Below are positions 25,694 to 55,436 of a stretch of DNA of 64,000 nt, one piece after another. The translations under genes and the position numbers were made by a program. The first letter of the stretch is position 1; every line of letters starts with the position of its first letter. The notes beneath the pieces were generated by a model, which worked only from the letters and a program-made list of their open reading frames with translations, ran no database searches and had not been told where the DNA came from. The stretch comes from Dehalococcoidales bacterium (GTDB taxonomy: Bacteria > Chloroflexota > Dehalococcoidia > Dehalococcoidales > Fen-1064): contig DATKWT010000091.1 of NCBI GenBank assembly GCA_035529395.1, positions 135-64,134 of the forward strand. Direction: 5' to 3'.

Positions 25694-26926
25694 ATGAAGA
25701 GACTGACCCTTGACCAGTGGGAGAAGAAGTATATTGCCGGTACGGTCGAGAGGTTTGACCAGAAGTATCAGATGTTCAACAGGCCGGCCTGGGACCCGGA
25801 GATGAAAGAGTTGCTGGAGGACTGGTCATTCGGTGGCGAAGCCAGGGAGAGACCGGGCTATACTTTGCTTGACCACGCACTGAAACGGGCGAGCTCACGC
25901 ATCACACAGCTAGCGGTGTTCAATATGTACAAGCCCAACCCCAGCCCGGTGACAATGGCAATAACGGCGGCGATGGCAGGTGCATACTCGCGTCGTCAAC
26001 CCATGCCGGAGAAACCTCGTGAGAGGATGAAGATTGATGTCAGTGACTCGGAGGTACTGACGCGTAATGTGAAGAAAGTGGCCCGGTACTTTGGAGCCGA
26101 CCTGGTGGGTGTCTGCCGGCTGGACCGGCGGTTCGTGTATTCACACACCTACGGAGGGAACACATTTGAGGGTGCGCGTGAGTCTGAAGTGGACGCAGAC
26201 GGATCCCGGCCGCAGGAAATACCCGGTGAGTTTCAGTACGCCATAGTCATGGGATTCGAGATGGATTACGACCTCATGAAGTACTTCCCGACCTATGTTG
26301 CCGAAACCACTACGGCAATGGGTTACAGCAGGATGGCCATTGCCAATGCCCACCTGTCCGCCTTCATTCGGGGGCTGGGGTTCAAGACCATTGACTGTAG
26401 CATCAATGATGTTGCCCTTTCGGTACCACTGGCAATGCAGGCAGGGCTGGGTGACATCGGACGGAACGGGATACTGATTACACCACAGTTCGGGCCTCGC
26501 CTGAGGTTGAGCAAGGTGTTTACTGACCTGCCGCTGATTGTCGATACGCCGGTTGATTTCGGGGTCACCGAATTCTGTAAAGCCTGTATGAAGTGTGCCG
26601 AGATGTGTCCATCACAGGCCATTTCCACCGGGGAGAGGACCTCCGAGCCAAACAACGTGTCCAACGTGACTGGTGAAATGAAGTGGTCGATTGACCCTGT
26701 CAAATGCCGTATGCACTGGGGGCGTACGGATAAGTCATGCACCATCTGCGTTGCCTGCTGCCCCTACAATAAGCCGGATACCCTGTTCCACCGGGCGGTC
26801 CTGCGTCTTACCGACTACCTGAGGTGGACGGATTCTCTCTGTGTCCGGATGGACAAATTGCTCGGTTACGGCAGACCGGCCCGGGTAGCGGACTTCTGGG
26901 AGGAGTGGCAGCCCCGGCGGCACTAG
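25694..26926 (+). CDS. Reductive dehalogenase homologue (RdhA-like) without a TAT signal
   Basis: The C-terminal motifs are DLPL..D.PVDFG..EFCKACMKCAEMCPSQAI and W..DP.KC..(9)..CTICVACCPYNKP, the two RdhA Fe-S motifs. The N-terminus MKRLTLDQWEKKY has no RRxFxK. No rdhB-like ORF is adjacent. Confidence 0.85.
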   Translation: MKRLTLDQWEKKYIAGTVERFDQKYQMFNRPAWDPEMKELLEDWSFGGEARERPGYTLLDHALKRASSRITQLAVFNMYKPNPSPVTMAITAAMAGAYSRRQPMPEKPRERMKIDVSDSEVLTRNVKKVARYFGADLVGVCRLDRRFVYSHTYGGNTFEGARESEVDADGSRPQEIPGEFQYAIVMGFEMDYDLMKYFPTYVAETTTAMGYSRMAIANAHLSAFIRGLGFKTIDCSINDVALSVPLAMQAGLGDIGRNGILITPQFGPRLRLSKVFTDLPLIVDTPVDFGVTEFCKACMKCAEMCPSQAISTGERTSEPNNVSNVTGEMKWSIDPVKCRMHWGRTDKSCTICVACCPYNKPDTLFHRAVLRLTDYLRWTDSLCVRMDKLLGYGRPARVADFWEEWQPRRH

Positions 26927-30937: not shown

Positions 30938-31930
30938 ATGAGTATGCCGTATACGGTCGGTCCAATCAGGCCTCCATCGGAGGCGTACTCGCTGCTGGTA
31001 AGGGTCACGGAGAACTGTCCCTGGAACCGGTGCGAGTTTTGCTCTGTCTTCAAGGATCAGAAGTTCCGGATACGTCACATCGAAGAGGTTAAGGAGGGAA
31101 TCCTGGCTGTCCGGAGGCTGGTAGAGGACACGTACCGGTGGTCGGAACGCGGTGGTTATACCGTTGGCCAGGTTGCCCAACTCAACGGTATCCTCTGGCT
31201 CCAGGATGACGGTGTCAGGAACGCATTCCTCCAGGACTCGGACAGCATGATAATGAAGACCGAGCCTCTTGCCGAGATACTGGAGTTTCTCTGCGGGACG
31301 TTTCCCACGCTGGAAAAGGTGTGTACCTACGCCCGGGCAAAGACCGTTTACCGGAAGAAGCCCGAAGAGCTGAAGCGGTTGCGAGATGCAGGGCTTTCCC
31401 GACTTCATATTGGCCTGGAGACCGGTGATGACGACCTCCTGGCCTATATTCAGAAGGGCGTCACCGCTGCTGAGCAGATACAGGCCGGCAAGAAGGCGGT
31501 CGAGGCTGGTTTTGAGGTCTCGGAGTACGTCATGCCGGGGTTGGGAGGTAGGGAGCGCTGGGAGCAGCATGCCCTGAACTCGGCCCGGGTGCTGAATGAG
31601 GTCAACCCCCGGTTCATCAGGCTACGCACCTTTCATCCTGCTCCGGGGACACCGATACACGAGAAAGCCCGGCGCGAAGAATACCACGTCCAGTCTATCG
31701 AAGGTGTTCTGAAGGAGATACGGACGTTTGTGGAGGCCCTTGATGTGACCTCCGAGTTGATTACCAGCGATTTCGCCTGGAATTTCTACCTGGGGGAGAT
31801 TGATGGTAAGCTCCCTGAGGAGAAGGAAAAGGTACTCGCGGAGATTGACCGGGCGCTGGCCTACTGGCAGGCGGAGGGGGAGCCCAGGCGAAACCCGTTC
31901 ATGGGAAACCTGAACCTGGAGCTAAATTAA
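30938..31930 (+). CDS. Radical SAM domain protein with CX4CX2C cluster spacing
   Basis: GPIRPPSEAYSLLVRVTENCPWNRCEFC. The Cys triad is spaced 4+2 rather than the canonical 3+2. Elp3-like glycine-rich region HIGLETGDD. Confidence 0.75.
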   Translation: MSMPYTVGPIRPPSEAYSLLVRVTENCPWNRCEFCSVFKDQKFRIRHIEEVKEGILAVRRLVEDTYRWSERGGYTVGQVAQLNGILWLQDDGVRNAFLQDSDSMIMKTEPLAEILEFLCGTFPTLEKVCTYARAKTVYRKKPEELKRLRDAGLSRLHIGLETGDDDLLAYIQKGVTAAEQIQAGKKAVEAGFEVSEYVMPGLGGRERWEQHALNSARVLNEVNPRFIRLRTFHPAPGTPIHEKARREEYHVQSIEGVLKEIRTFVEALDVTSELITSDFAWNFYLGEIDGKLPEEKEKVLAEIDRALAYWQAEGEPRRNPFMGNLNLELN

Positions 31931-31942
31931 GGCTGTATTGTA

Positions 31943-32557
31943 ATGAATGCACCCGTCGGGATAACTGTCTATTCAGACTACATCTGACCCTGGTGCTATG
32001 TCGCGGCAGTTCGGCTGCAGAGAGTCAAAGAGCGGTACGGTGATAGTATCAACATCACCTTGAAGAGCTTCCCTCTGCTGATTGAGAATATACCGGGGAG
32101 GCCGATTTCGCCACACAGTACCGAGGCCCGTGAGCGCGCCAACAACGAAGAAGAGGTCTTCCGGCAGTGGGATGAGAATCTGCCCTATCCTTCCTCCAGC
32201 ATGCCGGCCCAGATAGCGGGCAAGTGCGCCTTACTCCAGGGCAAAGAGGCGTTTGGGCATTTCCACGGTGCTGTCTTCAAAGCATTCTTCCGGGACTGCC
32301 GTGATATCAGTGATGGGGAAGTCCTGACCAGCCTGGCCGCAGATGTCGGACTTGATGTTGAGCGGTTCCGGGCAGATTACAGTAGCGGCTCACAAGAGAA
32401 CGAGGTCCTGGCCGAATACGAAGAAGGCCGGAGTGAGTACGAGGGTTGGGGGGTTCCCCTGGCGATAATCGGCGGCCGGTTTCCACTCGTTGGGGCGGTC
32501 CCCATTGAGATGTACCGTCGGGCGATAGACCTCTGCCTGGCGAGGCAGCGAGTCTGA
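31943..32557 (+). CDS. DsbA/FrnE-family thiol:disulfide oxidoreductase, candidate selenoprotein (in-frame UGA at 31985-31987)
   Basis: Translation from the ATG at 31943 gives MNAPVGITVYSDYI-[TGA]-PWCYVAAVRL. It continues in frame into the track ORF 32060-32557. The TGA sits exactly where family members have the first Cys of the CPWC redox motif. Confidence 0.65.
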
Positions 32558-33030: not shown

Positions 33031-33702
33031 TTAGACCGTTACCCCGGCCTTCGGTGGTTGCTCTTCCCTGGGTACCAGAGCACCGGTCGGGCAGACTACT
33101 ATGCACTCGGCACAGTAGTCGCATCCTGAAGTGTCCATCGGTTCATCGGCAAAGGTGGTGACCCGCCGATCGAAGCCCCGGTGGGCAAAGCCGAGTACAC
33201 TGGTACCGGAGTGCTCCCGGCACACCCGGACACACCGTCCGCACAGCACGCATTTGTTGGCGTCATAGACGAACAACGGGTGGCTTGTGTCGATGGGAAG
33301 GTCGCGTTCCAGCTTTCTGAGGTGCTTTGACTTCAGTTTCACATGGAGGTGCCGGGCTATCTTCTGCAGTTCGCAGGAACCGTTCCTGGGGCAGTGAGCG
33401 CAGTCCAGGGCGTGAGACGCCATGAGAAGCTCAAAGCCCTGCCGGGCCAGACTGAGGGCGTTATCTCCCCTGGTATTGACTGTCATGCCTTCAGTTACCG
33501 TCTCAGTGCACGCTGTGACCGGTCTGTCCCTGTCCGCTACCTCAACAAAGCACAACCGACAGGCAGCCATCGGCTCGTGATTGTCCCTCATGGCGCACAG
33601 GTTGGGGATATAGAACCCGTTATCGAGGGCAACCCAGAGAAGGATTTCACCCTCGTTGGCGGTTATCTTCCGGCCGTCAATTGTCAGAGATATTGTCTTC
33701 AT
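33031..33702 (-). CDS. NuoG-N-terminal-like / HoxU-like Fe-S subunit ([2Fe-2S] plus [4Fe-4S] clusters)
   Basis: The 2Fe-2S ferredoxin-type N-terminus has C..(10)..CRLC..(13)..C. This is followed by HALDCAHCPRNGSCELQ and CVLCGRCVRVC. It has no molybdopterin or hydrogenase domain. Confidence 0.8.
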   Translation of the reverse strand: MKTISLTIDGRKITANEGEILLWVALDNGFYIPNLCAMRDNHEPMAACRLCFVEVADRDRPVTACTETVTEGMTVNTRGDNALSLARQGFELLMASHALDCAHCPRNGSCELQKIARHLHVKLKSKHLRKLERDLPIDTSHPLFVYDANKCVLCGRCVRVCREHSGTSVLGFAHRGFDRRVTTFADEPMDTSGCDYCAECIVVCPTGALVPREEQPPKAGVTV

Positions 33703-33706
33703 GTGT

Positions 33707-35623
33707 CTACTTTGCCGCGGCAGGTACTTCGCTGGGCGGCGATAATTTCACTATGGCATCGTACTGCGGTGGGCAGGCGGTCCGGCAGGTATCACATTTC
33801 ACGCACTTGTCCTGGTCGATGACCTTAATCCTCTTCTTGTTGGGGGTTATTGCTTCCACGGTACAGGTGCCCACGCAGGCGTCGCAGGAACGCTCGCACT
33901 TATCCGGCAGGATGTAGTAGGCTATAAGGTCGCGACACATCAGCGCCGGGCAGCGCCCCTCTCTAATGTGGGCCCGGTACTCGTCCTCGAAATAACGTAG
34001 CGTGGTCAGCACCGGATTGGGTGCCGTCTTCCCTAGACCGCAGAGAGAGCCGGCTCTTATGGCCTCAGCCAGCATCACCAATGTGTCAATATCTTCCTCC
34101 TTGCCCTGTCCCCGTGTGATGTCGTCGAGTATAGCCAGCATTTGCCTGGTCCCGAGACGGCAAAAGGTGCACTTGCCGCAGGACTCACGCTGGGTGAATT
34201 CGAGGAAATAGCGTGCAATTTCCACCATGCAGTCGTCCTCATCGAGGACTACCATCCCCCCGGAGCCCATCATGGCACCTGCTTCGGTCAACGAATCGAA
34301 GTCGATAGGCAGGTCCAGCGCCGATTCCGGCAGACAGCCACCGGAAGGCCCGCCAATCTGGACTGCCTTGAACTGCTTTCCGCCGGGGATGCCGCTGCCG
34401 GCGTCGAAGATGACCTGCCGCAGTGTGGTGCCCATAGGGACCTCCACGAGTCCGGTGTTGACCACCTTGCCGGCCAGGGCGAAGACGGCGGTACCCTTGC
34501 TCTTCTCCGTGCCGATGCCGGTAAACCATTCTGCCCCGTTCTCAATAATGGGCGGTACCGCGGCCAGGGTCTTGACATTGTTGATAATGGTGGGCTTTCC
34601 GTTGAGGCCGCTGGTCGCCGGGTAGGGCGGACGGTGGTGGGGTATTCCTGCTTTCCCTTCCAGTGAGGCAATAAGCGCCGTCTCCTCACCGCAGACAAAG
34701 GCACCGGAACCCTGAAACAGGCGGATATCGAAGTTAAAATCGCTCCCTAGAATGTGCCTGCCGAGGAAGCCAGCTTTGCGAGCCTGGCGGAGGGCAATCC
34801 GCACCCGCTCCACCGCCAGCGGATACTCGGCGCGGACGTAGATATAGCCGTGTTGCGCTCCGATAGCGTGGGCGGTGATGACCATTCCTTCAATCACGGA
34901 GTGAGGGTCGCTCTCAAGGATTGACCGGTCCATGAAAGCACCCGGGTCGCCCTCATCGGCGTTACAGACTACGTACCGTGGCTTTCCCGGTGCCTGACGG
35001 CATATCTCCCATTTCATTCCAGTGGCGAAACCACCCCCACCCCTGCCCCTCAGCCCCGATAATTTCACTTCGTCGATGATATCCTCGGGAGACATCTTGA
35101 GTGCCTTGTCCAGTGCTGAGTAGCCGCCGTTGGCAAGATAGTGGTCAATATCGGTGGGGTCAATGTGTCCACAGTTCCTCAGGACCACCTTCTTCTCATA
35201 GCTGGCGCGGGGGAAATCGGCGAAACTGGGAATGAAGTCGTTCTCTTCCATCGCGCCGAGAACGAATTCCAGGCAGACGTTATCGCCCACAATGAATTCT
35301 TTGACCAGCCTCTCGGCAATAACGGGGTTGACGTAGCCGTAGCAGATTGCCGGGTACCCTGGCTTGTGAATCACCACCAGTGGCTCGGCGTAACAGTGGC
35401 CCATGCAGCCGACCTCGATAACGGGGCAGTCCAGCCCCTGTCTTTTCAACTCTGCCCTGAGTGTATGGAGAATTTCCAGGGCACCGGCAGCACGACCACA
35501 GGTAGCCGTACCGACCAGTATTACGGGTTTGTCGGAGTTAAACAACTCTGTCCAGCGGGATTCGGCACGTGCCTTTATCTCCTGGAAAGAAGAGGCGATA
35601 GCGGATGATATGATTTCCTTCAC
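33707..35623 (-). CDS. NuoF-like NAD(P)H-binding flavoprotein subunit (HydB/HndC/HoxF-type architecture)
   Basis: An N-terminal thioredoxin-like 2Fe-2S domain, the NuoF core (GLRGRGGGGFATG, CNADEGDPGAF, ESCGKCTFCR) and a C-terminal 2x[4Fe-4S] region (CDACVGTC, CVKCDTCRTACP). Confidence 0.9.
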   Translation of the reverse strand: MKEIISSAIASSFQEIKARAESRWTELFNSDKPVILVGTATCGRAAGALEILHTLRAELKRQGLDCPVIEVGCMGHCYAEPLVVIHKPGYPAICYGYVNPVIAERLVKEFIVGDNVCLEFVLGAMEENDFIPSFADFPRASYEKKVVLRNCGHIDPTDIDHYLANGGYSALDKALKMSPEDIIDEVKLSGLRGRGGGGFATGMKWEICRQAPGKPRYVVCNADEGDPGAFMDRSILESDPHSVIEGMVITAHAIGAQHGYIYVRAEYPLAVERVRIALRQARKAGFLGRHILGSDFNFDIRLFQGSGAFVCGEETALIASLEGKAGIPHHRPPYPATSGLNGKPTIINNVKTLAAVPPIIENGAEWFTGIGTEKSKGTAVFALAGKVVNTGLVEVPMGTTLRQVIFDAGSGIPGGKQFKAVQIGGPSGGCLPESALDLPIDFDSLTEAGAMMGSGGMVVLDEDDCMVEIARYFLEFTQRESCGKCTFCRLGTRQMLAILDDITRGQGKEEDIDTLVMLAEAIRAGSLCGLGKTAPNPVLTTLRYFEDEYRAHIREGRCPALMCRDLIAYYILPDKCERSCDACVGTCTVEAITPNKKRIKVIDQDKCVKCDTCRTACPPQYDAIVKLSPPSEVPAAAK

Positions 35624-36174
35624 TGGTCTTTCTGTTCCTCGGATTCTCTCTCAAGCTTGAACTTGAGCAGTATCCCATCTACTTTTGTAGGCTCCACTTT
35701 GGCTTCAGGAATATCGTCAACTACGGTCACCGGTGCCATGGTGCAGCAGCCTACGCAGGCCACGGTATCAAGGTCAAACTCGCGGTCTGTCGTAGTCTCG
35801 CCTTCGTTTATCTCCAGTCGCCGTTTCCAGGCATCCAGCGTGATGTAGCCACCCTTCATGTGACAGGCTGTACCGAGGCACACCCGGATAGCGTGCTTTC
35901 CCGGCGGGTTGAGGCGGAACTGGTTGTAGAATGTCACCACTCCGTATACGTCTATCTCCGGTATGCCGAGAAATCCGGCGATTTCTTTCATAGCCTCAAG
36001 AGGAAGGTATCCGAGCCTTCCCTGGACCTTCTGCAGAATGGGAATCAGGTTACGTCTCTTACGGCTGAAACCCTTCAGGGCACGCAGGGTCTCCTGGCGG
36101 TGCCAGGCCTGTTCATCTGTGGTGCCGTCGTATGACACGCTGCTTGTTGCTTTCTTTACTATCTTTCCTGTCAT
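35620..36174 (-). CDS. NuoE-like [2Fe-2S] subunit
   Basis: LIPILQKVQ, VCLGTACHMKG and CVGCC. Start trimmed to MTGK (the track begins 23 codons upstream and overlaps the ferredoxin gene). Confidence 0.85.
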   Translation of the reverse strand: MTGKIVKKATSSVSYDGTTDEQAWHRQETLRALKGFSRKRRNLIPILQKVQGRLGYLPLEAMKEIAGFLGIPEIDVYGVVTFYNQFRLNPPGKHAIRVCLGTACHMKGGYITLDAWKRRLEINEGETTTDREFDLDTVACVGCCTMAPVTVVDDIPEAKVEPTKVDGILLKFKLERESEEQKDQ

Positions 36175-36185
36175 GTCTAAGGTGC

Positions 36186-36398
36186 TTACATCGTTACTAT
36201 CCGGATAGCCTGCATGGGACAGGCACGGACGCAATCGCCACACGCCTGACAGAGGGATGGATTGGTCATCGGTATCTCTCCAAAATGCTCCTGTTTGATT
36301 AGCTTACGGGGGCACGCTTCGGCGGCGAGGCAGATTCCATCCTCGCAGTACTCCGGGTGGCACTTCGGGAAGTCCACCAGGGCCATCTTTTCAGGCAC
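36186..36398 (-). CDS. Small ferredoxin-like protein
   Basis: One canonical CQACGDCVRACP motif plus a non-canonical C-x4-C-x4-C-x5-CP. Start is the GTG at 36398 or the ATG at 36386. Confidence 0.65.
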   Translation of the reverse strand: MPEKMALVDFPKCHPEYCEDGICLAAEACPRKLIKQEHFGEIPMTNPSLCQACGDCVRACPMQAIRIVTM

Positions 36399-42180: not shown

Positions 42181-42861
42181 CTAATACCAGACCAGCCAGT
42201 TGCCCAGCACCAGTACTCCCATGATTACCAGCAGGCTGCCACTGACCATGTATATCACCCTGGAATAGCGATTGATTTTCTTGACCAGTGGAGCGACGAA
42301 ATCAAAGGCGATTCCTACCACCAGGAAAGGTAGCCCCAGGCCCAGGGAATAGACGGCCAGCAGGTATGCACCTTCCCAGGCCGACTGCGAAGTCCAGGCG
42401 ACGGTCAGAACGGTGCCCTGCACCGGTCCGACACATGGTGTCCATGCTACGCTGAATACTGCCCCGGTCAGGAAGGAACGCAGGTAGCCGGTGGCGATAC
42501 TCTTTGAAGGGGCCAGCCGTTTTTCGAAGTTCAGCCAGGGCACCTTGAGCGCGGCCAGCATGATTATACCGAAGAGTATCAGCAGACTACCGGCAGTCCA
42601 GCGTACCAGTGACGAACTGGGGCTGAGCACCACTCCCAACAGCCCGGCACCGGCTCCCACCCCGCTAAATATCAGTGTGAAGCCGAGGACAAAGCAGACG
42701 GAGTGCAGGAATATCGGGAAACGCTTTCTGGTGCCGGCATCGAATATTTCCGGACCATAGAGACTGGCGAAATACACAGGGACCAGAGGTATGACACATG
42801 GCAACAGAAAGGAGGACAGCCCGGCGCCAAAAGCAAATAAAAGTGAAACGTTGTCCGCCAT
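42181..42861 (-). CDS. ccdA: CcdA/DsbD-family thiol:disulfide transmembrane electron transporter
   Basis: Six predicted TM helices with the conserved Cys in LLPCVIPLVP and WTPCVGP. Confidence 0.85.
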   Translation of the reverse strand: MADNVSLLFAFGAGLSSFLLPCVIPLVPVYFASLYGPEIFDAGTRKRFPIFLHSVCFVLGFTLIFSGVGAGAGLLGVVLSPSSSLVRWTAGSLLILFGIIMLAALKVPWLNFEKRLAPSKSIATGYLRSFLTGAVFSVAWTPCVGPVQGTVLTVAWTSQSAWEGAYLLAVYSLGLGLPFLVVGIAFDFVAPLVKKINRYSRVIYMVSGSLLVIMGVLVLGNWLVWY

Positions 42862-44092: not shown

Positions 44093-44968
44093 CTACACGT
44101 CCAGCCAGGAGTGGGAGTAAAGGACCTGTCCGGTCACCACCCGCACCGACTTGGCGTACTTCGCCTCTTCAGAGTCGAGGGAAGCGAGGTCAGGCATTTC
44201 ACCATCCATTATGCGGTGAATCATGGCGACACGTTCCGACCTTTCACCACGGGCTATCTTAATCAGCTCCGCGTCGAATGCGTCCACTATCGCCGAATGT
44301 ATATTGTATTTCATGAGCATCATCAGGTAAGTGCGGTTGAGGTAGGGGCGGAGTTCGTTTGGTGTACCATTGGAGACATTGGACAGGCCCACTGCTGACT
44401 TGCCGCCAGGAGCAATCTCGTGGAGCATACTCATGAACTCCAGGCAGGGCTTGACCTGGTTCGTATCCACGTTGCTTGCCGGGGTTACGATAGGGTCGAA
44501 CCAGATAGTATCATTGGTAATACCCAACTCGGCAGCTGCCATCATAAGCTCCATGGCAATCATGCTGCGTTCGTCCTCATCTCTCGGCATACCCTCTCGT
44601 CCCCAGAGCAGCCCGATGAAGTCGGCATTATACTTGGTGGCCAGAGGCAGCTCCTCTTCCATCCTGGCCAGGGATATAGAGTTTATTAGCGCACGCCCCT
44701 TGTGGACTTTGAGGCCGGCCTCGATTGCCACGGGATTGGTACAATCGAGTGACAGGGGCATGTCAACTACCTCTTGTACTGTCTTGACTGCCCATTCCAT
44801 CATCTCGTCACCAGCCCTACGGCCAGGCCCGATGTTGATATCGAGGTAGTCCACTCCCGCTTCCTTCATGGCTCTGGCCATCTCCTGGATAGGAGCAGCA
44901 TTTCTCTCCCTGAGAGCCGGGCCGAGTGTCTTAGACATTATGTTGATGTTTTCTCCGATGAGAATCAT
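44093..44968 (-). CDS. acsE: Methyltetrahydrofolate:corrinoid/Fe-S protein methyltransferase
   Basis: Pterin-binding TIM-barrel protein (IGENIN, DYLDINIGP) adjacent to acsC. Confidence 0.85.
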   Translation of the reverse strand: MILIGENINIMSKTLGPALRERNAAPIQEMARAMKEAGVDYLDINIGPGRRAGDEMMEWAVKTVQEVVDMPLSLDCTNPVAIEAGLKVHKGRALINSISLARMEEELPLATKYNADFIGLLWGREGMPRDEDERSMIAMELMMAAAELGITNDTIWFDPIVTPASNVDTNQVKPCLEFMSMLHEIAPGGKSAVGLSNVSNGTPNELRPYLNRTYLMMLMKYNIHSAIVDAFDAELIKIARGERSERVAMIHRIMDGEMPDLASLDSEEAKYAKSVRVVTGQVLYSHSWLDV

Positions 44969-44977
44969 TGCTCCCTC

Positions 44978-46324
44978 CTAAGCTTTCCACGATTTCAGGT
45001 AGGCTGGAATGTGGGCTGCGTCCCTGGGGCCAACCATTATCTCCCAGCCGGGTAGCTCCTCTTCAATGCCTCCACTCTCCGCAGCGGCGTAACCGGGGAT
45101 TATGAGCTTCCGGTGCTTGACCTTGTCTTCGATGCCGCTCTTCTTAACGAACGGACCGATAAGGTCAGCCACGAACTTGCCTGCCGCCCAGGCGGTCATT
45201 ACGGAAAGCCCTTCGGTGTCCATTATCAGGAGGTGACTGGGTACCTTGCTGCCTTCTATCTCGCCGGAGACGATGAAGTAGGTTAATGCAAAGTTGGTGG
45301 TAACCAGTACCGGGGAGTTCTCGTTTGGATTGTTGATATCGTAGATGCCCTGTTCCGTTGCCAGTGGCCGCTGAGGGTCGGTGAAGATGTTCAGCCGTTC
45401 GACGAGTAACGGGAACAGACTCTCTCCATAGAGGTCAGAGAGAACGATGATTCCACCGTATTTAGCGACGAGCATGGCGGAAATCATTCCTTCCTTCATC
45501 GGGTTATCCGTCATCTCACAGGGGAAGGCAATCGTGGGGAATCCCAGAGGACGGAACTTGCCGGCAAGTGCCGCGTTTCGGGTGATAACCTGGTCCTCGA
45601 AGGTCTGGCGAACGGTCCTGGCCCCGGAGTCAATAACAATATCATTAACACCGGCATCCATCAGCTTCTGGGTGAGCTCGGAAAGCTCTTCGAGTCCGTC
45701 AGCCTTGACACCAATCGAGGAGGAGTTCTCCTTGACAAGCTCCGCCATGGCATCGAGGTTATCTTTGGTCGCACCATAGACCAGCGGTTTCTGGTCGGCG
45801 CACTCCTTCAGACCGGCAGCAAGAATAGTTGTGTCTTCACTCATAAGGATAAGGTTAGCATCACTGTTCTGGGCCACCTTGCTGACCAGGGCTCCGAACT
45901 TTGCGGCGTCCCCTGATTCGCTCTTGATCGCCACCAATTCGGGGCGGAGGTGCAGGCCGACTCTCTCAAACTGGAGTTCCTTGAATCTCTGAAGCCTGCC
46001 GTCAACATCCGCATCAGACATAGCATCGCTGACGAGTACGGCTACTGCCGTCGGGTTCTCGAGGCGTTTTTCGTGGCGGAACATAACCGTCTCGCCGCCG
46101 ACCTTCACCGCCTCGGGACCAGTGCCGATGGTAACTGCCCTGATGGGAGGTGCCGAGGCCTCAGCGAGTTGTTCCGTTGCCTCTTCGGAGACGTGCGGAC
46201 AGGCAGAGAGCTCCGCCTTGCCCGATGCCAGGTTCATGGCAAAGGCGAGGCAGGTGGGCACTCCACAATCGCCGCAGTTCGTCTTTGGCAGCAGTTTGAA
46301 TATCTGTATTCCGGTAAGTGCCAT
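44978..46324 (-). CDS. acsC: Corrinoid/Fe-S protein large subunit
   Basis: The N-terminal 4Fe-4S motif is NCGDCGVPTCLAFAM...C. Start at MALTG after AAAGGAG (the track adds 38 aa overlapping acsB). Confidence 0.9.
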   Translation of the reverse strand: MALTGIQIFKLLPKTNCGDCGVPTCLAFAMNLASGKAELSACPHVSEEATEQLAEASAPPIRAVTIGTGPEAVKVGGETVMFRHEKRLENPTAVAVLVSDAMSDADVDGRLQRFKELQFERVGLHLRPELVAIKSESGDAAKFGALVSKVAQNSDANLILMSEDTTILAAGLKECADQKPLVYGATKDNLDAMAELVKENSSSIGVKADGLEELSELTQKLMDAGVNDIVIDSGARTVRQTFEDQVITRNAALAGKFRPLGFPTIAFPCEMTDNPMKEGMISAMLVAKYGGIIVLSDLYGESLFPLLVERLNIFTDPQRPLATEQGIYDINNPNENSPVLVTTNFALTYFIVSGEIEGSKVPSHLLIMDTEGLSVMTAWAAGKFVADLIGPFVKKSGIEDKVKHRKLIIPGYAAAESGGIEEELPGWEIMVGPRDAAHIPAYLKSWKA

Positions 46325-46340
46325 AGTCGTGACTCCTTTC

Positions 46341-48548
46341 TTAGCCCAGTATCGAGTCCATGGTGAGGGCGGGATGTCCCTTCTCCTCGAGGAAGGGTAG
46401 AATCTCCTCTTCGGTCTCACCCACGGATTCATCGGCAATCATATCCATCAAGTTGGGTACACCCATCTCCTCAGCCCTGGCATTCAGCCTGTCTGCTATC
46501 TCTTCCTTCAGCATCTTGGGCATCCAGACTATACGCAGCAGGCCACCGTCGCCAATGATGAATTTCCTCTGGCAGATATTGTACTTGCCGTGGCCTACAA
46601 ATCCCGGGCTGCTGATGCCACCGCCGATTGTCCCGGCCAGCGTGGTGAATTTCATTCCACAAGGGGTCATACCGCTGTATTCGCGGTTGACGGTCATGAT
46701 GCCGTTGCACATCGGCAGGACTGCCGCGATGGCCTCGCAGCAACCGCAGGTGGTCATCGGGTCGTTGATAATGCTGTAGAAGTTGTAGTGGTCAATCTTA
46801 CCACGCGATGCCTGGAAGACGAAGTCATTGACACCCTTCCACTGGCCGAGCTTGGCATCGATTGTCTCACCCTTCTCCACGGGTTGGTTCGGGCCGGTGG
46901 GGTTTATCTCGAAGGATGCCTTGCAGTCCATCCAGTTATATGAACCACAGAGTCCGGTCCTCTCGGGGCTGACCACGCAGACGTGGCTGGGGGCGAAGGA
47001 CTGGCACAGCGTGCAGGAGTAGTAGGTCTCGGTGGTCTCGTCGGTCATGCCTTCAATTCTGGCGTCACGCTCGGAATAGACCGTACGTGCCTTTTCTACT
47101 ATCTCCTTCACCTTGTCTTCTTCGGTATAGAGCTTTACCTGGAGTTTATCGAATATCCGGCCGAAGTCCTGGTGGAGCTTGGCGTGGAGTAGCGCACCGA
47201 TGTGTTCCAGCTTGAAGCCCTTCTCCACGGCACCCTTGCCCACCCTTATCCAGGCGATATCTCGCTGTCCGATGTGCATCGCACCCTGGGCGTAGTTAAT
47301 CAGGTGGTGGACCTGGCGCTCCAGGATAGGCTCGTAGTCATCTTCGAACTCTCTGCCGGCAACCTCCACTACTATTGCCAGCGGCAGTTTGGAGCCAGCC
47401 TCTATGTCCGTGATGTTCGGACCGATTATTTCAACCGCACCGTCCTCGACTTCGTCCATTCTCTTGGAAGTGACCCACTCTACCATGGCAGTACGACCAC
47501 CACCGCACTCCAGGTAGATGTCCTCGCCACGTACGCGTTCGCCTTCAAAGGCCGGGCCGTAGGCTACGGGAATCGGTACGTCAGCGACGGTAACCTTGAG
47601 TCCCCGTACCTCAATTGCTTTGGCCACGATTTCATTGTGGGGTATGTTGGAGACAACGTGCTCATAGGTGCAGATACCAGTGGGTAATACTTCCGGTATC
47701 GGGGTATCCGCGATGACGGGGAAGCCCCAGTTGATGACACCAGCGGCATTGGCGTACCACTCATCGGTTACGTAGCCCAGTGGCAGTGCAAAAGCGAAGA
47801 CGCGATCTTTGTTGTAAATCAGTATCTTGCGGTAGTCCCCGGGTTCAATACCACCGAAGGACATGGCAGCACGGGTGGCAAAACCCATGGCGAATACGGC
47901 AGCGCTCGTGTCGGGACCGAAAGAGACCAGCCTTGTTGGCCAGCCAATTTGCACTCCGGCCTCAACGAGTTGCTCGGAAAAACTAACGCCATTGTATTCA
48001 CCGGCCATGAAGACATACAGGTTCTTCTCCAGGAGTTCCTGGGCAATGTTTGCGGCGATTTCTGTAGTGGGAGCAGCACCGAGTATGGCAGCAAATCCCG
48101 GGGCCGTGCCATCCACGAACTCAACACCGCGCTTTCTCAGGATAACGTCATCGGCGGCACCAAGCCAGATGTTGTCATCGTTGACATCCTCACCCTGAAC
48201 GTAGAAATTGGGATTCTCCAGGTAGCGGATAGCTTCTACCATCTCTTCTGCAAACAGCGTTGACATCCCTGCGTCAAGGGCTGGAGCCAGGTAGGGCAGC
48301 GGATGTACTTCTTTGACCATTGGGGGCAGCATGGCCTGACATCGTTTCAGAATCGGCTCCATATCCCCCAGGTTCTCTACTTTTTCACCAAGCATACCGT
48401 AGATTATGGGTAAGAAGTAGGCTGTATTTGGGAAACCCACAGGTTCTTTGGCGCTCCACTTGTCCATGGCCTCCTGCCACTTCTTCTCGGCGTTGCCGAC
48501 AATATTGTGAGCACCCCTGATAGCTGCCGAGGCAATTATCTTGGACAT
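46341..48548 (-). CDS. acsB: Acetyl-CoA synthase (ACS) catalytic subunit
   Basis: 735 aa. The A-cluster region is CTLCQSFAPSHVCVVSPER.GLCG and CGCCE. Confidence 0.95.
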   Translation of the reverse strand: MSKIIASAAIRGAHNIVGNAEKKWQEAMDKWSAKEPVGFPNTAYFLPIIYGMLGEKVENLGDMEPILKRCQAMLPPMVKEVHPLPYLAPALDAGMSTLFAEEMVEAIRYLENPNFYVQGEDVNDDNIWLGAADDVILRKRGVEFVDGTAPGFAAILGAAPTTEIAANIAQELLEKNLYVFMAGEYNGVSFSEQLVEAGVQIGWPTRLVSFGPDTSAAVFAMGFATRAAMSFGGIEPGDYRKILIYNKDRVFAFALPLGYVTDEWYANAAGVINWGFPVIADTPIPEVLPTGICTYEHVVSNIPHNEIVAKAIEVRGLKVTVADVPIPVAYGPAFEGERVRGEDIYLECGGGRTAMVEWVTSKRMDEVEDGAVEIIGPNITDIEAGSKLPLAIVVEVAGREFEDDYEPILERQVHHLINYAQGAMHIGQRDIAWIRVGKGAVEKGFKLEHIGALLHAKLHQDFGRIFDKLQVKLYTEEDKVKEIVEKARTVYSERDARIEGMTDETTETYYSCTLCQSFAPSHVCVVSPERTGLCGSYNWMDCKASFEINPTGPNQPVEKGETIDAKLGQWKGVNDFVFQASRGKIDHYNFYSIINDPMTTCGCCEAIAAVLPMCNGIMTVNREYSGMTPCGMKFTTLAGTIGGGISSPGFVGHGKYNICQRKFIIGDGGLLRIVWMPKMLKEEIADRLNARAEEMGVPNLMDMIADESVGETEEEILPFLEEKGHPALTMDSILG

Positions 48549-48582
48549 TCTATACCTCCCTTATCTCTCTCAACACAGGCAT

Positions 48583-50544
48583 TTAGGTCAGCTCGCGCCT
48601 CATCTCCATGTCATAGAGTACGCGTTCCCTGGCCTTATCAATGCCCAGGGCTTTACGTTTCTTGTCGATGTGGTCAATCATCAGGTGGGCTGCCTTGATT
48701 GGGTCCTCTTCAAATCCCCACATCCCACCGTACATGTCTTCCATTTCCTTGAACAGGAAGTCGGTCACTTCTTTGCTTCCCAGAGTGGGCCAGTTAACGC
48801 CGAATACGGTATACACTCCCGAAGCGACGAAGTACTGTCCGATGGATATTGCCTTCTCGCTCATCCACTCCGGTGCTGCTCCGGCTACCGGCAGGTCACT
48901 GATATCATCACCTAAACCGCCGTCTTTGACCATAGCGGTGGCGGCTATCAGGATACGGCTGTTGTCCACGCAGGAACCCATGTGGAGTACAGGCGGGATA
49001 CCAACCGTCTCACATACCTCTCTCAGGCCCTCACCGGCGAACTCGGCAGCTGCTTCCGGCACCAGGAGTCCTGCCTCGGCGCAGGCAATAGCGTTGCAGC
49101 CGGTGGTAACCACCAGCACATCGTTCTTTATCAGTTCCTTCACCATGGCAATGTGACCCTCATTGTGCTTGACGCGGGCGTTATTGCAGCCAACGACGCC
49201 GGCGAGACCCCTTATCCGGCCGTTAATGATGTTATCATTCAGTGGCCGGTAGGAGGCCCGGAACATGCCGCCCAGCAGGTAGTTGATGGTCTCGTGGCTG
49301 AATCCGGCAATCTGAGTAGTCTCATTGTCAGGAATGCCAACATTCCCCTTGCGATTGGGGAAGTTCTCAATAGCGGTTTTGACTATCTCCCGGGCCGATG
49401 TCAGGGCATCATGCTCGTCAAACTCGATGTGGATGGCTCCAGGTATCTTGGCCTTGGGTGAGGTGGTGATAATCTTGGTATGGTAGCACTCCGCTACCGT
49501 GGTTATGGACTGGAAGATGCACTGGACATCCACTACCATAGCATCCACGGCTCCGGTTACTATGGCCAGCTCCTGCTGCAGGAAGTTGCCGGCTATGCCT
49601 ACTCCGTGGCGCATCAGTATCTCGTTGGCAGTACAGCACATACCGGCCAGATTAATGCCCTTGGCACCTTTCGATTTGGCCAACTCCACCATTTCCGGCT
49701 CCTGGGCAACAGCTACAATTATCTCGGAAAGCAGTGGCTCGTGGCCGTGAATAATAATGTTGACCTCGTCTTTTCTGAGTACGCCCAGGTTTGCCTTGCC
49801 TAGAATAGGGGCCGGGGTGCCAAAGAGTATGTCCTGGAGCTCGGTAGCAATCATGCTGCCACCCCAGCCATCGCCAATGGCTGCCCTGACACCCTGCTTG
49901 AGCAGGTTCCTGTAGTCCTGGTCAACCCCGATGTGGGTCCGGTGCATTATCTCGACGATTTCCCTGTCAATACCCCGGGGGGCGACGCCCTGGCTTCGCC
50001 ATAGCTCCTGGCGTTTCAGTGGCGCTTTCCTCAGGGTTATCAGCTCACCCTCCTGCCGGCCGAACTCGGCCAGGGCTTTTTCACCGATATCAACGGCTAT
50101 TTCACTATTGCTGCGGTCGCCAATATCGATACCCCAGTCCAGAGCTAGCTGCAGCAGTTTCTGCTCATCCTTTATCTCGTATCCGGGGGCTTCTCCCCTG
50201 GCGGTTGCCAGGAATAACTCGGCTGTTCCCCGGCCGTGGTCGGAGTGGGCCGATGCTCCTCCGGCTATCATCCGGATGAAATTGCGGGCCGCGATGGTCT
50301 CAGCGGTAGCCCCGCATATGCCTCTTCTTTTCAGTTTTTGTTCGGGTGTTTCCTCTTTGCCTTTGGGCAAAGGTACCCGGCAGGGTCCCATAGCACAGTT
50401 CTTGCAGCAACTACCGACAGAACCTATGGGACAGGGTTTCATGGCATCAGCTCTATCGAAAGCGGTATTGACTCCGTCGGCGGTTGCCTTCTTTATCAGC
50501 TCGATAGTAGCCTGATCGATGCTTTTATTCTCTGCCTCTGACAT
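48583..50544 (-). CDS. cooS: Anaerobic Ni,Fe carbon monoxide dehydrogenase catalytic subunit
   Basis: The N-terminus carries CPIGSVGSCCKNCAMGPC. It also has HGHEP, the GMCCTANE region and GSCVDN. Confidence 0.95.
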   Translation of the reverse strand: MSEAENKSIDQATIELIKKATADGVNTAFDRADAMKPCPIGSVGSCCKNCAMGPCRVPLPKGKEETPEQKLKRRGICGATAETIAARNFIRMIAGGASAHSDHGRGTAELFLATARGEAPGYEIKDEQKLLQLALDWGIDIGDRSNSEIAVDIGEKALAEFGRQEGELITLRKAPLKRQELWRSQGVAPRGIDREIVEIMHRTHIGVDQDYRNLLKQGVRAAIGDGWGGSMIATELQDILFGTPAPILGKANLGVLRKDEVNIIIHGHEPLLSEIIVAVAQEPEMVELAKSKGAKGINLAGMCCTANEILMRHGVGIAGNFLQQELAIVTGAVDAMVVDVQCIFQSITTVAECYHTKIITTSPKAKIPGAIHIEFDEHDALTSAREIVKTAIENFPNRKGNVGIPDNETTQIAGFSHETINYLLGGMFRASYRPLNDNIINGRIRGLAGVVGCNNARVKHNEGHIAMVKELIKNDVLVVTTGCNAIACAEAGLLVPEAAAEFAGEGLREVCETVGIPPVLHMGSCVDNSRILIAATAMVKDGGLGDDISDLPVAGAAPEWMSEKAISIGQYFVASGVYTVFGVNWPTLGSKEVTDFLFKEMEDMYGGMWGFEEDPIKAAHLMIDHIDKKRKALGIDKARERVLYDMEMRRELT

Positions 50545-50590
50545 TGTGCAACTCCTCTCCTCTCCAATATTCCAGGTGGCTGTGAGCTAC

Positions 50591-51535
50591 TTATGTAGCC
50601 GTTAATTCAGCTACCATTTCCCGGACCAGCTTGATTGCTTCCGGGTGTCTCATTACTAACAGGTCCCCACCTGCCAGAAGCAGGGTCATGGCGGACATCG
50701 CTTCCAGCAGGATACCGCGCTTCCTGGCGTCTCCCATGTTCATCTCGTTATCCGGGAGGTGGACTTCCTTGGACTTCCAGACCTCTTTGGACAGGTTGCA
50801 GACGATGGGGAACTGGAGCTTGTCGTCCTGCTGTGTCAGTCCGGCCATCCTCATTCTCTCCATCACCGAATAGGCGTATTCGATACCGTAACCAATACTG
50901 CTGACGGTGGGGTCGATGACAATCTGCTTATCAGGCACGCCAAGGTTACCCAGCAGGATATTGAGCTGCTTGGCCAGGTTAATGTCTATCGGGGTGGAGG
51001 CCACCACGGTGTGTTTATAGGCTATGGCGGCGGCGCCAATACGCTTGTGGTTCGCTTCCTGTACCGGCCCGATAATCAGGCTCTTGTCCTGGCAGGCCTC
51101 GGCCACTGCCCTGAGTACCTCGGTATCCTTGTCAACATTGGCTGTCCCCCAGACGAGGAGAGGAACATCAATGGCATCAGCCACCTTCTTCACCACTGCG
51201 GCGGCTTCCTCAGCCCCGCGGTCAAGTCCGTTGGGGTCGGTGCTTTCCAGCGAAAGGGCAATCATCTCTGCCCCGTAGTCATCGATGCACTTCTTCGCCC
51301 AGGCAACGGGGTCGTCGGTCACACCGGCGAAGGGTTCCAGCGCAGCCTCAGCCCACTCCTGTGGAGGACAGTCGAGCACCTCCATAGCTATCCTTGGCTG
51401 GCGTGGCATCTCACCTTCGAACAGGTAGAACGGGTAGACGGTCTCGCCGCCGACCACTACGGCCTTGTCCCCCTTGCCGAGCGATACTTCTTTTATCTTA
51501 CCGGTGTAGGATGTTTTCGGAATATCAAAAGCCAT
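50591..51535 (-). CDS. acsD: Corrinoid/Fe-S protein small subunit
   Basis: 314-aa TIM-barrel protein located between folD and cooS. Confidence 0.85.
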   Translation of the reverse strand: MAFDIPKTSYTGKIKEVSLGKGDKAVVVGGETVYPFYLFEGEMPRQPRIAMEVLDCPPQEWAEAALEPFAGVTDDPVAWAKKCIDDYGAEMIALSLESTDPNGLDRGAEEAAAVVKKVADAIDVPLLVWGTANVDKDTEVLRAVAEACQDKSLIIGPVQEANHKRIGAAAIAYKHTVVASTPIDINLAKQLNILLGNLGVPDKQIVIDPTVSSIGYGIEYAYSVMERMRMAGLTQQDDKLQFPIVCNLSKEVWKSKEVHLPDNEMNMGDARKRGILLEAMSAMTLLLAGGDLLVMRHPEAIKLVREMVAELTAT

Positions 51536-51549
51536 CTCTGTTCCCCTCT

Positions 51550-51768
51550 CTAGGCCGGATTCTTTCTTTTTTCGCTGCCGAACCAGTCATCTGAGTACCA
51601 GTACCGCTCACCGGTCTCCAGGTACTTCAGCTTTTCTTCACGGCTGGACAGCTTTTGTCGCCATTTACCGACTTCTTCACCCTCGGGCTGGCCATCTTCA
51701 TAAGTGGGACCCAGTACCTCTACTGCGTCTCTACCCGGGGCTTTCACTTTTTCGACCTGGTATTCCAT
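51550..51768 (-). CDS. Hypothetical 72-aa charged/aromatic protein inside the WL operon
   Basis: AAGGAGGG RBS. It sits 14 nt upstream of acsD and 18 nt downstream of folD. I recognise no family. Confidence 0.5.
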   Translation of the reverse strand: MEYQVEKVKAPGRDAVEVLGPTYEDGQPEGEEVGKWRQKLSSREEKLKYLETGERYWYSDDWFGSEKRKNPA

Positions 51769-51786
51769 ATTCCTGTACCCTCCTTA

Positions 51787-52674
51787 CTAGGCCAGACCGG
51801 CAGCCAGCTTTGCTGCTCTGACCGTATTCAGCATTAACATGGTTATCGTCATCGGGCCGACACCACCGGGTACCGGCGTTATGGCGCTGGCCTTTTCCTT
51901 GACGGAATCGAAGTCAACGTCTCCGCAGAGGATTCTCTTACCTTCAGCAGTCGTACCGATCTGGTTAACACCGACATCGATGACCACGACGCCTTCCTTG
52001 ACCATGTCTGCGGTGATTGCCTTCGCTTTACCCGCGGCCACAATCAGTATATCGGCTCGCCTGGTGTGGAAAGCCATGTCTTTGGTCCGGGTGTGGCATA
52101 TCGTGACTGTGGCGTTGGCGCCCTCTTTCTTCTGAAGGAGCATGTTTGCGATTGGCTTGCCGACGATATTGCTTCTACCGACAACGACTACCTCGGCCCC
52201 TTCGGTCTGCACGCCGGACCTGATGAGAAGCTGCTGGATACCGTGTGGCGTACAGGGCAGGTAGTCCGGTTCCCCAATCATCAGCTTACCGATGTTAACC
52301 GGGTGGAATCCATCAACGTCCTTCTTGGGGTCGATTGCGATAAGCACCTCGTTCTCGTTGATGTGCTTCGGCAGAGGGAGCTGTACCAGGATCCCGTTGA
52401 TTTTGGGGTCTTTGTTGAGCCGGTCAACCAGGGTCATCAGGTCCTCTTGACTGGTGTCCTCGGGAAGGTCATATCTCTCCGAATAGACGCCCAGGTTCCC
52501 GGCCGTCTTTTCCTTCTGCCCGACATAGACCTGTGATGCCGGGTCTGCACCCACCAGAACAGTGACCAGTCCCGGTACCACATTGTGTTTCTCTTTGAGT
52601 TGGGCTATCTCTTCTTTCAACTCGGCGCGAATCTGCTTGGCGACATCGGCGCCTCTGATTATCTGTGCTGTCAT
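51787..52674 (-). CDS. folD: Bifunctional methylene-THF dehydrogenase / methenyl-THF cyclohydrolase
   Basis: PGLVTVLVG.DPAS..YV, VQLPLP, GRSNIVGKP and PGGVGPMT. Start at MTAQII, 5 nt after GGAGG. Confidence 0.9.
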   Translation of the reverse strand: MTAQIIRGADVAKQIRAELKEEIAQLKEKHNVVPGLVTVLVGADPASQVYVGQKEKTAGNLGVYSERYDLPEDTSQEDLMTLVDRLNKDPKINGILVQLPLPKHINENEVLIAIDPKKDVDGFHPVNIGKLMIGEPDYLPCTPHGIQQLLIRSGVQTEGAEVVVVGRSNIVGKPIANMLLQKKEGANATVTICHTRTKDMAFHTRRADILIVAAGKAKAITADMVKEGVVVIDVGVNQIGTTAEGKRILCGDVDFDSVKEKASAITPVPGGVGPMTITMLMLNTVRAAKLAAGLA

Positions 52675-52785
52675 TGCCCCCTCCATCATTATAGGATTTA
52701 TAGCATACGCAATACCAGTTCCCCGGTCTTTTTCCGGGTTCCCGGCACGTATTCTAACTGGCTTGAGTGTATCCTGTACCTCCTG

Positions 52786-53562
52786 CTAACGGGTAGATAT
52801 TTTCGTCTGGTCAAGGACCTGTTCCATGAGGTCTCTGACCACCTGCACCGCTGGCGAAGTATCCGGTAGTTCGAGCAGTGGTCTGAGCTCCAGGTCGTAG
52901 CGGTAAACCTCTTCGTCTTTCGGGATTATCGCAGCAAGTTCTATTCCCTGGCGCTCCAGTTCCTCCTTCACCAGTGGGTCGAGCTCGTCGGGAGCGGCGC
53001 TGATTACGGGCAGCAGTTTCTTTACTGTCAGCTTGAGGCTGGACACCAGCTCTATTATCCGGGCAATAGTCCGGACACCCTTCACGGAGTGGTTCGATAC
53101 CAGGAATAGAACATCAACGTCCTGAGTGGTCCTGCGGCTCAGGTGCTCCATCCCGGCCTCATTGTCCATGACCATGTAAGCGTAGTTGTCTGCCAGGGTA
53201 TCGGCGAACTTCTTAAGGATGACATTAGGGTAGCAGTAGCATTCCGGACCCTCGCCCCGGCCCATGGTCAGGAGGTCAATCCGGGGACTCTCCACCAGTA
53301 TCTCGTTCAGCTTGAAATCCAGGTAAAGTTCTTTCGTCATCCCCGGAGGGATGTTTATCTTGTCCCCCTGAAACTCGTCCAGCATTTTACCGACAGTCTG
53401 CCTGACGGTTAATCCCAGGCTTTCTCCGAGATTGGCATTGGCGTCGGCATCCACGGCCAGGATAGGTCCTGTGCCGCTATTCTTCAGGTAGCGGATAACG
53501 AGACTTGCCAGCGAAGTTTTACCACTGCCACCCTTCCCTGCCACCGCGATATTAAAGCTCAA
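52786..53562 (-). CDS. cooC: CooC/AcsF-type Ni-insertion ATPase (copy 1)
   Basis: Deviant Walker A AGKGGSGKT and a CYC (CxC) metal-binding motif. TTG start after AGGAG. Confidence 0.85.
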   Translation of the reverse strand: MSFNIAVAGKGGSGKTSLASLVIRYLKNSGTGPILAVDADANANLGESLGLTVRQTVGKMLDEFQGDKINIPPGMTKELYLDFKLNEILVESPRIDLLTMGRGEGPECYCYPNVILKKFADTLADNYAYMVMDNEAGMEHLSRRTTQDVDVLFLVSNHSVKGVRTIARIIELVSSLKLTVKKLLPVISAAPDELDPLVKEELERQGIELAAIIPKDEEVYRYDLELRPLLELPDTSPAVQVVRDLMEQVLDQTKISTR

Positions 53563-53596
53563 ATGGTTCTCCTACACTATGCTTATCAGGTATTGA

Positions 53597-55360
53597 CTAG
53601 AACAGACCGGACACCTTTCCGGTATTCACATCGACATCTACCTTCCGGAAGGCGGGGCTGGATGAAGTACCCGGCATCAGGCTGATGGTGCCGGCGCACG
53701 GGCAGAGGAACTTGGCCCCGGAGTAAATGAGAATATCGCGGATGGGCAGCGTCCACCCCTTTGGCACACCCTTCAGAGTCGGGTCATGGGTCAGGCTGAG
53801 GTGGGTCTTAACCATCATCGTGGCATAGTCATCGTACTGCGAGTCCCCCTCCATCTTCTTGGCCTTTTCCTCGGCATCCGCAGTCCAGGAAACGCCGTCG
53901 GCGCCATAGACGACCTTGGCAATTTTCTCGACGCGGTCCCGCAGCTTCATATCGATCGGGTAGAGGAAGTCGAAATTGGTTTCTTCCTTGCAAGCGTCAA
54001 TAACGGCATCGGCAAATTCCAGGGCACCATCACCACCGTCCGCCCAGTGGCTGGAGACAGCGCAGCGTGCTCCGGCGGCCTCGGCGGCCTTCCTGACCGC
54101 AGCGATCTCGTCCTTGGTGTCGGTGTAGAACGAGTTGATGCAGACCACCGGGTTTATGCCCGATGTCCTGATGGTATTGATGTGATGCAGCATATTGGGT
54201 ATGCCCTTTTCAACAAGTTCCACGTTTTCTTTCGTATACTCTTCGGGCAGGGCGAGACCGGCAACCACTCTGGGTCCACCGCCATGCATTTTCAGAGCGC
54301 GGATAGTGGTGGTAAGTACCGAGACATTGGGTTTGAGACCGCTGTAGCGGCTCTTGACGTTCCAGAACTTCTCAAAACCGATATCGGCGGCAAAACCGCT
54401 CTCGGTGACGTGGTAGTCGAACAGCTTCAGCCCGACACGGTCACCAATGATGGATGACTGGCCCACGGCGATGTTGGCGAACGGACCGGCGTGGACCATC
54501 AGTGGCTGATATTCGACAGTGGAGCACAGGGTGGGGTTGATGGTGTTCCGCATCCAGGCCGTCATTGCACCACCGACTCCCAGGTCCTTGGTAGTGACCG
54601 GCTTGCCTCGCCTGTCGAAGGCGACGGTGATATTGTCCAGTCTCTCGCGTAGGTCAGCGAGGTCACGCACGATGGAAAGGATGGCCATGAGTTCCGAGCC
54701 CACGGCGATACCGAACTTGGACTGCATGGTGAAGCCGTCCATTCGGCCGCCAATACCGATGATAATGTTGCGCAGACTCTGGGCACAGAAGTCCATTATC
54801 CAGCCCATCTCCACACGGGTGGGGTCTACACTCAGGCGGGGCATCCCGGTGAGTTTTTCGAGTTGGGTATCGCTATAGTTTCTCTCGTGCTGCATTCTGG
54901 CGGTCAGCGCTACCATCGCCAGATTGTGAGCGTTCATGATGTCATTGATGTCGCCGGTGAGTCCCATGGAGAACTCGGTCATCGGGATAAGCAGGGAATT
55001 GCCACCGCCGGCAGCAGTACCCTTGACGTTCATCGTCGGGCCACCGGAAGGCTGACGGAGACACCCGCCGACATTCACGCCTCGTTTGCCCAGGCCCTCC
55101 ATCAGGCCGACTGAAGTGGTGCTCTTGCCTTCTCCGAGCGGTGTGGGGGTGATGGCGGTTACCTCGATGTACTTGCCATCAGGCTTGTCCTTGAGACGGT
55201 CGATAATCTTGAGGAAGTCGAGCTTGGCTATCCTTCCGTAGGCGAGGAGCTCCTCCTTTTCCAGGCCAAGCTTGTCGCGCCACTCATCAGGGGTGGGCAT
55301 GTTCTGTTCGGCCGCTTCGGCTATTTGCCAGTCCTCCATTTTTACCGCGTCGTAAGCCAT
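53597..55360 (-). CDS. fhs: Formate-tetrahydrofolate ligase
   Basis: [16 protein letters not shown]. Start at MAYDAV after AGGGAGG (the track adds 36 aa reaching into cooC). Confidence 0.95.
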
Positions 55361-55436
55361 TGAAACCTCCCTATTATATATGTCTATTTCCTTAAAGAAC
55401 TCCGGTCCTGAACTCTCGTTTTTTCTCGCAACCCTT

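Follow-up and report, generated by a model that had tools for sequence, protein, structure and literature searches.

A Dehalococcoidales DsbA-fold oxidoreductase gene with an in-frame TGA as the probable selenocysteine codon of its redox centre

Results

Gene and reading frame

The window, by which we mean the whole stretch of 64,000 nucleotides analysed here, contains a DsbA/FrnE-like thiol:disulfide oxidoreductase gene that lies between a radical SAM protein gene and a convergent trio of NuoG-, NuoF- and NuoE-like genes (Table 1). For the region 31943-32557 the ORF listing gives 32060..32557 (165 aa, TTG) only. An earlier note on this DNA had proposed that this ORF is the tail of a longer frame that opens at an ATG and runs through an in-frame TGA, and re-reading of the frame bore this out. 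From the ATG at 31943 the frame reads MNAPVGITVYSDYI-TGA(31985-31987)-PWCYVAAVRLQRVKERYG, and past this TGA it stays open until a terminal TGA at 32555-32557, giving 204 codons with no further internal stop. TGA also closes 15 of the window's 48 complete ORFs that reach 150 aa, so this codon has not undergone genome-wide reassignment.

Table 1. Position of the DsbA-like gene, its elements and the other features of the window discussed in the text
Feature	Position	Strand	Remarks
Full-length DsbA/FrnE-like thiol:disulfide oxidoreductase gene	31943..32557	+	204 codons + stop; probable Sec at codon 15
In-frame TGA, probable Sec codon	31985..31987	+	Homologous codon TGA in 28 loci
U-P-W-C redox motif	31985..31996	+	Equivalent of C-P-W-C in FrnE and Cys orthologues
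Mechanically called 165-aa ORF, TTG start	32060..32557	+	C-terminal four-fifths of the real gene
Candidate SECIS hairpin	32001..32020	+	Core stem 32003-32007/32014-32018, loop 32008-32013, optional outer pairs
Radical SAM protein gene, probable operon partner	30938..31930	+	PF04055; 12-nt gap upstream of the DsbA-like gene
2Fe-2S/4Fe-4S NuoG-N-terminal-like, NuoF-like and NuoE-like genes	33031-36243	-	Convergent trio
Two small FmdB-family zinc-ribbon ORFs	8014-8196, 8263-8499	+	PF09723 on identical contigs L054, L055

Protein family, fold and location

The assignment to the DsbA/FrnE family made in the earlier note is upheld by a full-length profile match that crosses the TGA. With U written as C, residues 7-195 of the window protein correspond to positions 2-190 of the 191 in PF01323 (DSBA), with a score of 81.7 bits (E = 8e-23; cut-off 25.6), and because the match begins at residue 7 the 14 residues ahead of the TGA are part of the domain. 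Among solved structures the best sequence match is Deinococcus radiodurans FrnE (E = 3.6e-11), in which SDIACPWCYIG stands opposite SDYI-U-PWCYVA and the GVP loop opposite GVP; P172 is invariant in the family alignment, and G-V-P would be the expected cis-proline loop facing the active site. FrnE in the strict sense was rejected, as the window protein ends at residue 204 and the alignment stops at residue 217 of the 260 in FrnE. The C-terminal extension of FrnE, which we take to be a tail with a redox-active CxxxxC motif, thus has no counterpart here, and the protein is FrnE-like rather than FrnE. In an NCBIfam profile search of the window protein no model, including the selenoprotein models, scored above its cut-off; the Rcas_1661 family thioredoxin-like (seleno)lipoprotein (NF041057) was discarded as a partial match of 47 bits against a cut-off of 190.

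The fold was derived from an AlphaFold2 model of a Cys orthologue, P0004, which is 65% identical to the window protein and whose numbering runs approximately one residue ahead of it. In this model (pLDDT 92.8) a strand at residues 5-11 is followed by CPWC at 15-18, a helix at 16-35 and a second strand at 36-42, and after helix 1 a helical insert precedes the closing strands and helix, as in the DsbA fold. Foldseek aligned the model to FrnE, 2in3, SCO1869 and YjbH with TM scores of 0.75-0.79. Judged by this model, a product starting at TTG 32060 would have lost strand 1 together with the redox motif, helix 1 and the greater part of strand 2. From a reading of the sequence, the window protein has no hydrophobic leader, signal peptide or lipobox, with strand 1 starting at approximately residue 5, and the lack of a leader peptide points to a cytoplasmic protein.

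The TGA codon in relatives

A protein search yielded 144 relatives of the window protein. Those with C-P-W-C are full-length (203-206 aa), and the database matches from the Sec-type clade, among them many of the closer relatives, are all truncated products of 116-190 aa with varying starts, such as MAAVRL and VAAVRL, directly after the redox motif, or LIENIP. The DNA was compared in nine loci taken from species-representative genomes, each of them a MAG of Dehalococcoidia or Chloroflexota, and in 44 metagenome loci. The homologous codon is TGA in 28 related loci with 32-95% identity, and TAA or TAG in none; nine orthologous loci have TGT, and in six (L003, L015, L021, L022, L025 and L026) the codon is for Ser, TCA or TCC. 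Chance would not account for TGA at this one codon in 28 related loci that are independent of each other. The possibility that close relatives carry TGC or TGT while this copy has degraded, also raised in that note, is contradicted by the two closest relatives, L001 and L010 (87-95% identity), which both have TGA; L001, from Dehalococcoidales BS750m-G43, is the nearest of the genome loci at 95% identity.

Both sides of the TGA are conserved in Sec-type loci. The peptide ahead of it is kept as ..[IV]xVY[SF]DY[LIV]-U-PWC, a start codon (ATG or GTG) precedes the TGA by 13-14 codons in all Sec-type loci, and across 23 distinct Sec-type sequences pN/pS is 0.314 for the 11 codons upstream of the TGA versus 0.311 for the 30 codons downstream. 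Neighbour-joining placed the Sec forms deep in the tree as a paraphyletic group in which both the CPWCC clade and the Ser forms are nested, a pattern that fits repeated Sec loss.

The residue after the motif follows the first position, being mostly U-P-W-C-[Y/F] in Sec forms and C-P-W-C-C in the main Cys clade (codon 31997-31999 in the window), with L012 (UPWCC) and L020 (CPWCY) as exceptions. Ser substitution is also seen at the protein level, in P0033 (S-P-W-C). Among the Ser loci the hairpin described below is intact in L022 and broken in L025 and L026, and the S-P-W-C loci look like a mixture of recent and older Sec loss.

A candidate SECIS hairpin

In the descriptive model of the bacterial SECIS, the UGA is closely followed by a small apical loop that contains a G (PMC1088965). 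A 5-bp hairpin of the window, GCGGC/GCUGC with loop AGUUCG, fits this model and has its loop starting 20 nt after the UGA. All Sec-type sequences can form the equivalent structure, which spans +19 to +34 when counted from the first base of the UGA. Its core is G-C-N-G pairing with C-U-G-C, to which one to three further pairs are often added, and in its loop, R-G-U-N-C-G, GU is invariant; the four core pairs are kept in 23 distinct Sec-type sequences. The earlier note had pointed to GCAG-UUCGG-CUGC, which is indeed present at 32006-32018 with its loop 22 nt after the UGA, but the relatives agree better with a register shifted 3 nt to the left. The second 6-bp hairpin of that note also exists (GGUGAU/AUCACC, 9-nt loop), but at 32039-32059 and not at ~32052-32072; starting 52 nt beyond the UGA, it is too distant for a SECIS, and as the relatives do not share it either, it was rejected.

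Statistical tests of the hairpin gave weak results. Single-sequence folding of 31985-32050 and 31970-32090 gave structures no better than those of shuffled sequences (z = +0.28 and -0.38), the hairpin is no more stable than in synonymous recodings (p = 0.45 for the window type; median 0.28 over Sec forms), and a compensatory change was found in only one of its seven pairs. The recoding test has low power because the codons of A-A-V-R-L-Q nearly dictate the stem. Searches against Rfam, of the window at the gathering threshold and of 31900-32150 at E <= 10, returned no SECIS family and one meaningless snoRNA match. Thus, of the SECIS-like structure that the earlier note expected to score above background, a positionally conserved hairpin was found, but its score does not exceed the coding-constrained background.

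Three comparisons favour the hairpin as real. Its mean energy is -8.2 kcal/mol in Sec forms versus -5.6 kcal/mol in Cys forms, in which helix 1 reads VL[ADE][VI]RL versus VAAVRL in the Sec forms. The most distant Sec homologue, L050, has LSTVRIE at these residues, yet forms a perfect 8-bp hairpin at the same position with an unrelated stem. The same contig carries an AhpC/TSA (Prx-like) gene at L050:624-1100 (+) with an in-frame TGA at L050:753 in FYRGHW-U-PYC (PF00578, E = 1.4e-17), followed by a 6-bp GC hairpin with loop AGUUG, which together point to a second selenoprotein gene on one contig. The hairpin at 32003-32018 is likely, but unproven, to be the SECIS.

Gene neighbourhood

A radical SAM gene lies immediately 5' of the DsbA-like gene in 20 of the loci examined, of Sec, Cys and Ser type alike, and the order radical SAM gene, DsbA-like gene and then, convergently, the 2Fe-2S, NuoF and NuoE genes is common to Sec, Cys and Ser loci. 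Because the neighbourhood is identical, the Sec and Cys forms can be taken as orthologous. The arrangement is kept in many Dehalococcoidales loci. Co-orientation with the radical SAM gene at a distance of 12 nt, maintained across the clade, suggests a shared task, at whose nature we can only guess. After the NuoEF-like trio there is no catalytic formate dehydrogenase or hydrogenase subunit.

Other genes of the window were also identified. A CcdA/DsbD-type membrane thiol-disulfide electron transporter (PF02683) is encoded at 42181-42861 (-), approximately 10 kb from the DsbA-like gene. Translations read from 44093-56228 (-) identified a Wood-Ljungdahl cluster with genes for the methyltransferase AcsE, corrinoid protein subunits, ACS, CODH, FolD, two CooC-like ATPases and formate-tetrahydrofolate ligase. 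The only Pfam match of a 410-aa protein at 25694-26926 (+), which may be reductive-dehalogenase-like or QueG-like, is a double 4Fe-4S domain (Fer4_16) at its C-terminus. Exact-protein look-ups aimed at DNA beyond the window gave short contigs alone for its first gene and no contig for NrdR.

Selenocysteine machinery

No selA, selB, selD, tRNA-Sec or second selenoprotein gene was found in the 64-kb window, in a search that covered TGA read-through frames and intergenic gaps, and a tRNA scan of 53 loci (L001-L053) returned nothing. The two FmdB-type ORFs at 8014-8196 and 8263-8499 are Cys forms of a family for which UxxU selenoprotein members are listed in a 2026 review (PMC13188914). For Dehalococcoidia, MAGs carrying 46-49 selenoprotein genes have been reported (PMC13326102), and marine Chloroflexi are known to have formate dehydrogenases that contain Sec (PMC5736913, PMC4959059). 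Indirectly, selection across the TGA in many lineages would only make sense if the codon is decoded.

Discussion

Taken together, these data indicate that the gene at 31943-32557 very probably encodes a cytoplasmic DsbA-fold (FrnE-like) oxidoreductase of 204 aa in which the nucleophilic N-terminal Cys of C-P-W-C is replaced by Sec. This agrees with the earlier note, which had proposed a U-P-W-C selenoprotein of this length missed by ORF calling, and the reading draws on the conservation of the TGA and its alignment with Cys, on the conserved flanks and on purifying selection upstream. A criterion in use for bacterial selenoprotein families is a conserved in-frame TGA in at least two sequences together with at least two Cys homologues (PMC1088965); the present family has 23 distinct Sec-type sequences, and TGT in nine orthologous loci. 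In the mechanism that we propose, a SelB-type elongation factor carrying Sec-tRNA(Sec) would bind a small stem-loop within the coding sequence, for which the best candidate is that at 32003-32018 with GU in a loop 20 nt after the UGA. Sec would thereby be delivered to the UGA, and the ribosome would continue rather than terminate. The product would then cycle between selenol/thiol and selenenylsulfide (U15-C18), and this cycling may serve the reduction or rearrangement of disulfides in cytoplasmic partners.

Truncated products of 116-190 aa are all that gene callers and public databases give for this clade, and this, with no Sec machinery seen in the 64-kb window, would be consistent with a pseudogene or truncated gene in which translation truly ends at the TGA and the cell makes either no useful product or just the 165-aa tail from TTG 32060. 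However, 28 loci with identities as low as 32% retain both the TGA and its two flanks, and purifying selection acts equally on the codons upstream and downstream of it, while the downstream start of the supposed tail varies between calls and the tail itself, as modelled, would be missing strand 1, the redox centre and helix 1. As the nearest relatives, L001 and L010, also have TGA, we consider a pseudogene highly improbable. A sequencing or assembly error that converted TGT or TGC to TGA would require a change of a single base, but the recurrence of this TGA in 28 contigs, which are independent and stem from many samples and assemblers, leaves this explanation with a practically negligible probability.

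The UGA might also be read through with an amino acid other than Sec, for example through Cys that the Sec machinery incorporates under selenium shortage, by near-cognate suppression with Trp or Cys, or in response to a local recoding signal of another type. The weak SECIS statistics leave some room for this. The site is nevertheless the catalytic Cys of a CxxC centre, a classic position for Sec/Cys pairs, in a family with recognised Sec forms (PMC1088965) and a class, Dehalococcoidia, known for heavy Sec use (PMC13326102); elsewhere in the window TGA acts as an ordinary stop, and a candidate hairpin of the bacterial SECIS type lies at the expected distance. Read-through without Sec is thus very unlikely, and decoding of the UGA as Sec is the reading that we prefer.

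Selenoproteins of this kind have been described repeatedly. A "DsbA-like, UxxC, COG2761" family was reported in 2005 by Zhang and Gladyshev from the Sargasso Sea (PMC1088965), DsbA-like selenoproteins followed in 2006 from Anaeromyxobacter, Desulfovibrio and Desulfotomaculum (PMC1794560), 45 genes in 41 organisms were counted by Peng et al. in 2016 (PMC5029168), and a 2026 review has the entry "DsbA-like protein form 1, PF01323, UxxC" (PMC13188914). The window protein resembles this form 1 in its PF01323 domain, in a probable Sec as the first residue of UxxC, in having no signal peptide and in its widespread Cys homologues, and the candidate hairpin, with a G in a small loop just after the UGA, would be of the same SECIS type. 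The Dehalococcoidales clade, its radical SAM/NuoEF-like neighbourhood and the Ser-substituted members are not described in the literature on DsbA-like selenoproteins that we surveyed.

Comparison with better characterised proteins of the fold places the window protein without fixing its substrate. D. radiodurans FrnE, a cytoplasmic disulfide oxidoreductase/isomerase (PDB 5cnw, 5co3, 5xwh), shares the redox motif, ACPWCY versus I-U-PWCY, and the GVP loop. However, identity is only ~19%, and FrnE is a protein of 260 aa with Cys, in contrast to 204 aa and a probable Sec here; the window protein also lacks the C-terminal tail that in FrnE carries Cys239, for which the structure of a C239S mutant exists. 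Foldseek further links the fold to a cytoplasmic DsbA-fold group comprising YjbH (6gho), DsbM (5hfg), 2in3, SCO1869 (3gl5) and kappa-class GST/HCCA isomerase, and the modelled orthologue has in common with this group a thioredoxin domain with a helical insert. These proteins are 10-23% identical and have diverse functions, including adaptor, reductase and transferase, and for this reason do not determine what the window protein acts on. Other UxxC thioredoxin-fold selenoproteins (Trx, Grx, Prx-like and DsbG-like), of which the AhpC/TSA gene of L050 with W-U-PYC provides an example, likewise have Sec in place of the Cys that attacks from the N-terminal end of helix 1 and would share the decoding mechanism, but belong to other subfamilies of the thioredoxin superfamily, without the DsbA helical insert.

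The window gene is very probably a further member of a long-known Sec family in a class already known to be rich in Sec, and thus an ordinary selenoprotein that does not change existing knowledge of selenoproteins. What is specific to the clade is the radical SAM neighbourhood, the repeated replacement of Sec by Cys and by Ser, and the very small hairpin in the helix-1 codons. A more speculative idea, which we regard as doubtful, is that a minimal SECIS of 4-5 bp lies within the helix-1 codons for A-A-V-R-L-Q, such that RNA and protein constrain each other and both drift once Sec has been replaced by Cys (the CPWCC clade) or Ser (SPWC). If true, the clade would be a natural series for the minimum RNA requirement of SelB and for the decay of Sec sites, and would point to a dedicated selenoprotein partner for the radical SAM enzyme.

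The locus is a well-sampled case in which Sec, Cys and Ser have repeatedly replaced one another at a single orthologous position. Its main consequence is a correction of annotation: the proteins of this clade are systematically mis-called in the databases searched, so a conserved enzyme of Dehalococcoidales from marine and sediment habitats appears there stripped of its redox centre, and the truncated entries mean that the use of selenium by these abundant anaerobes is under-counted.
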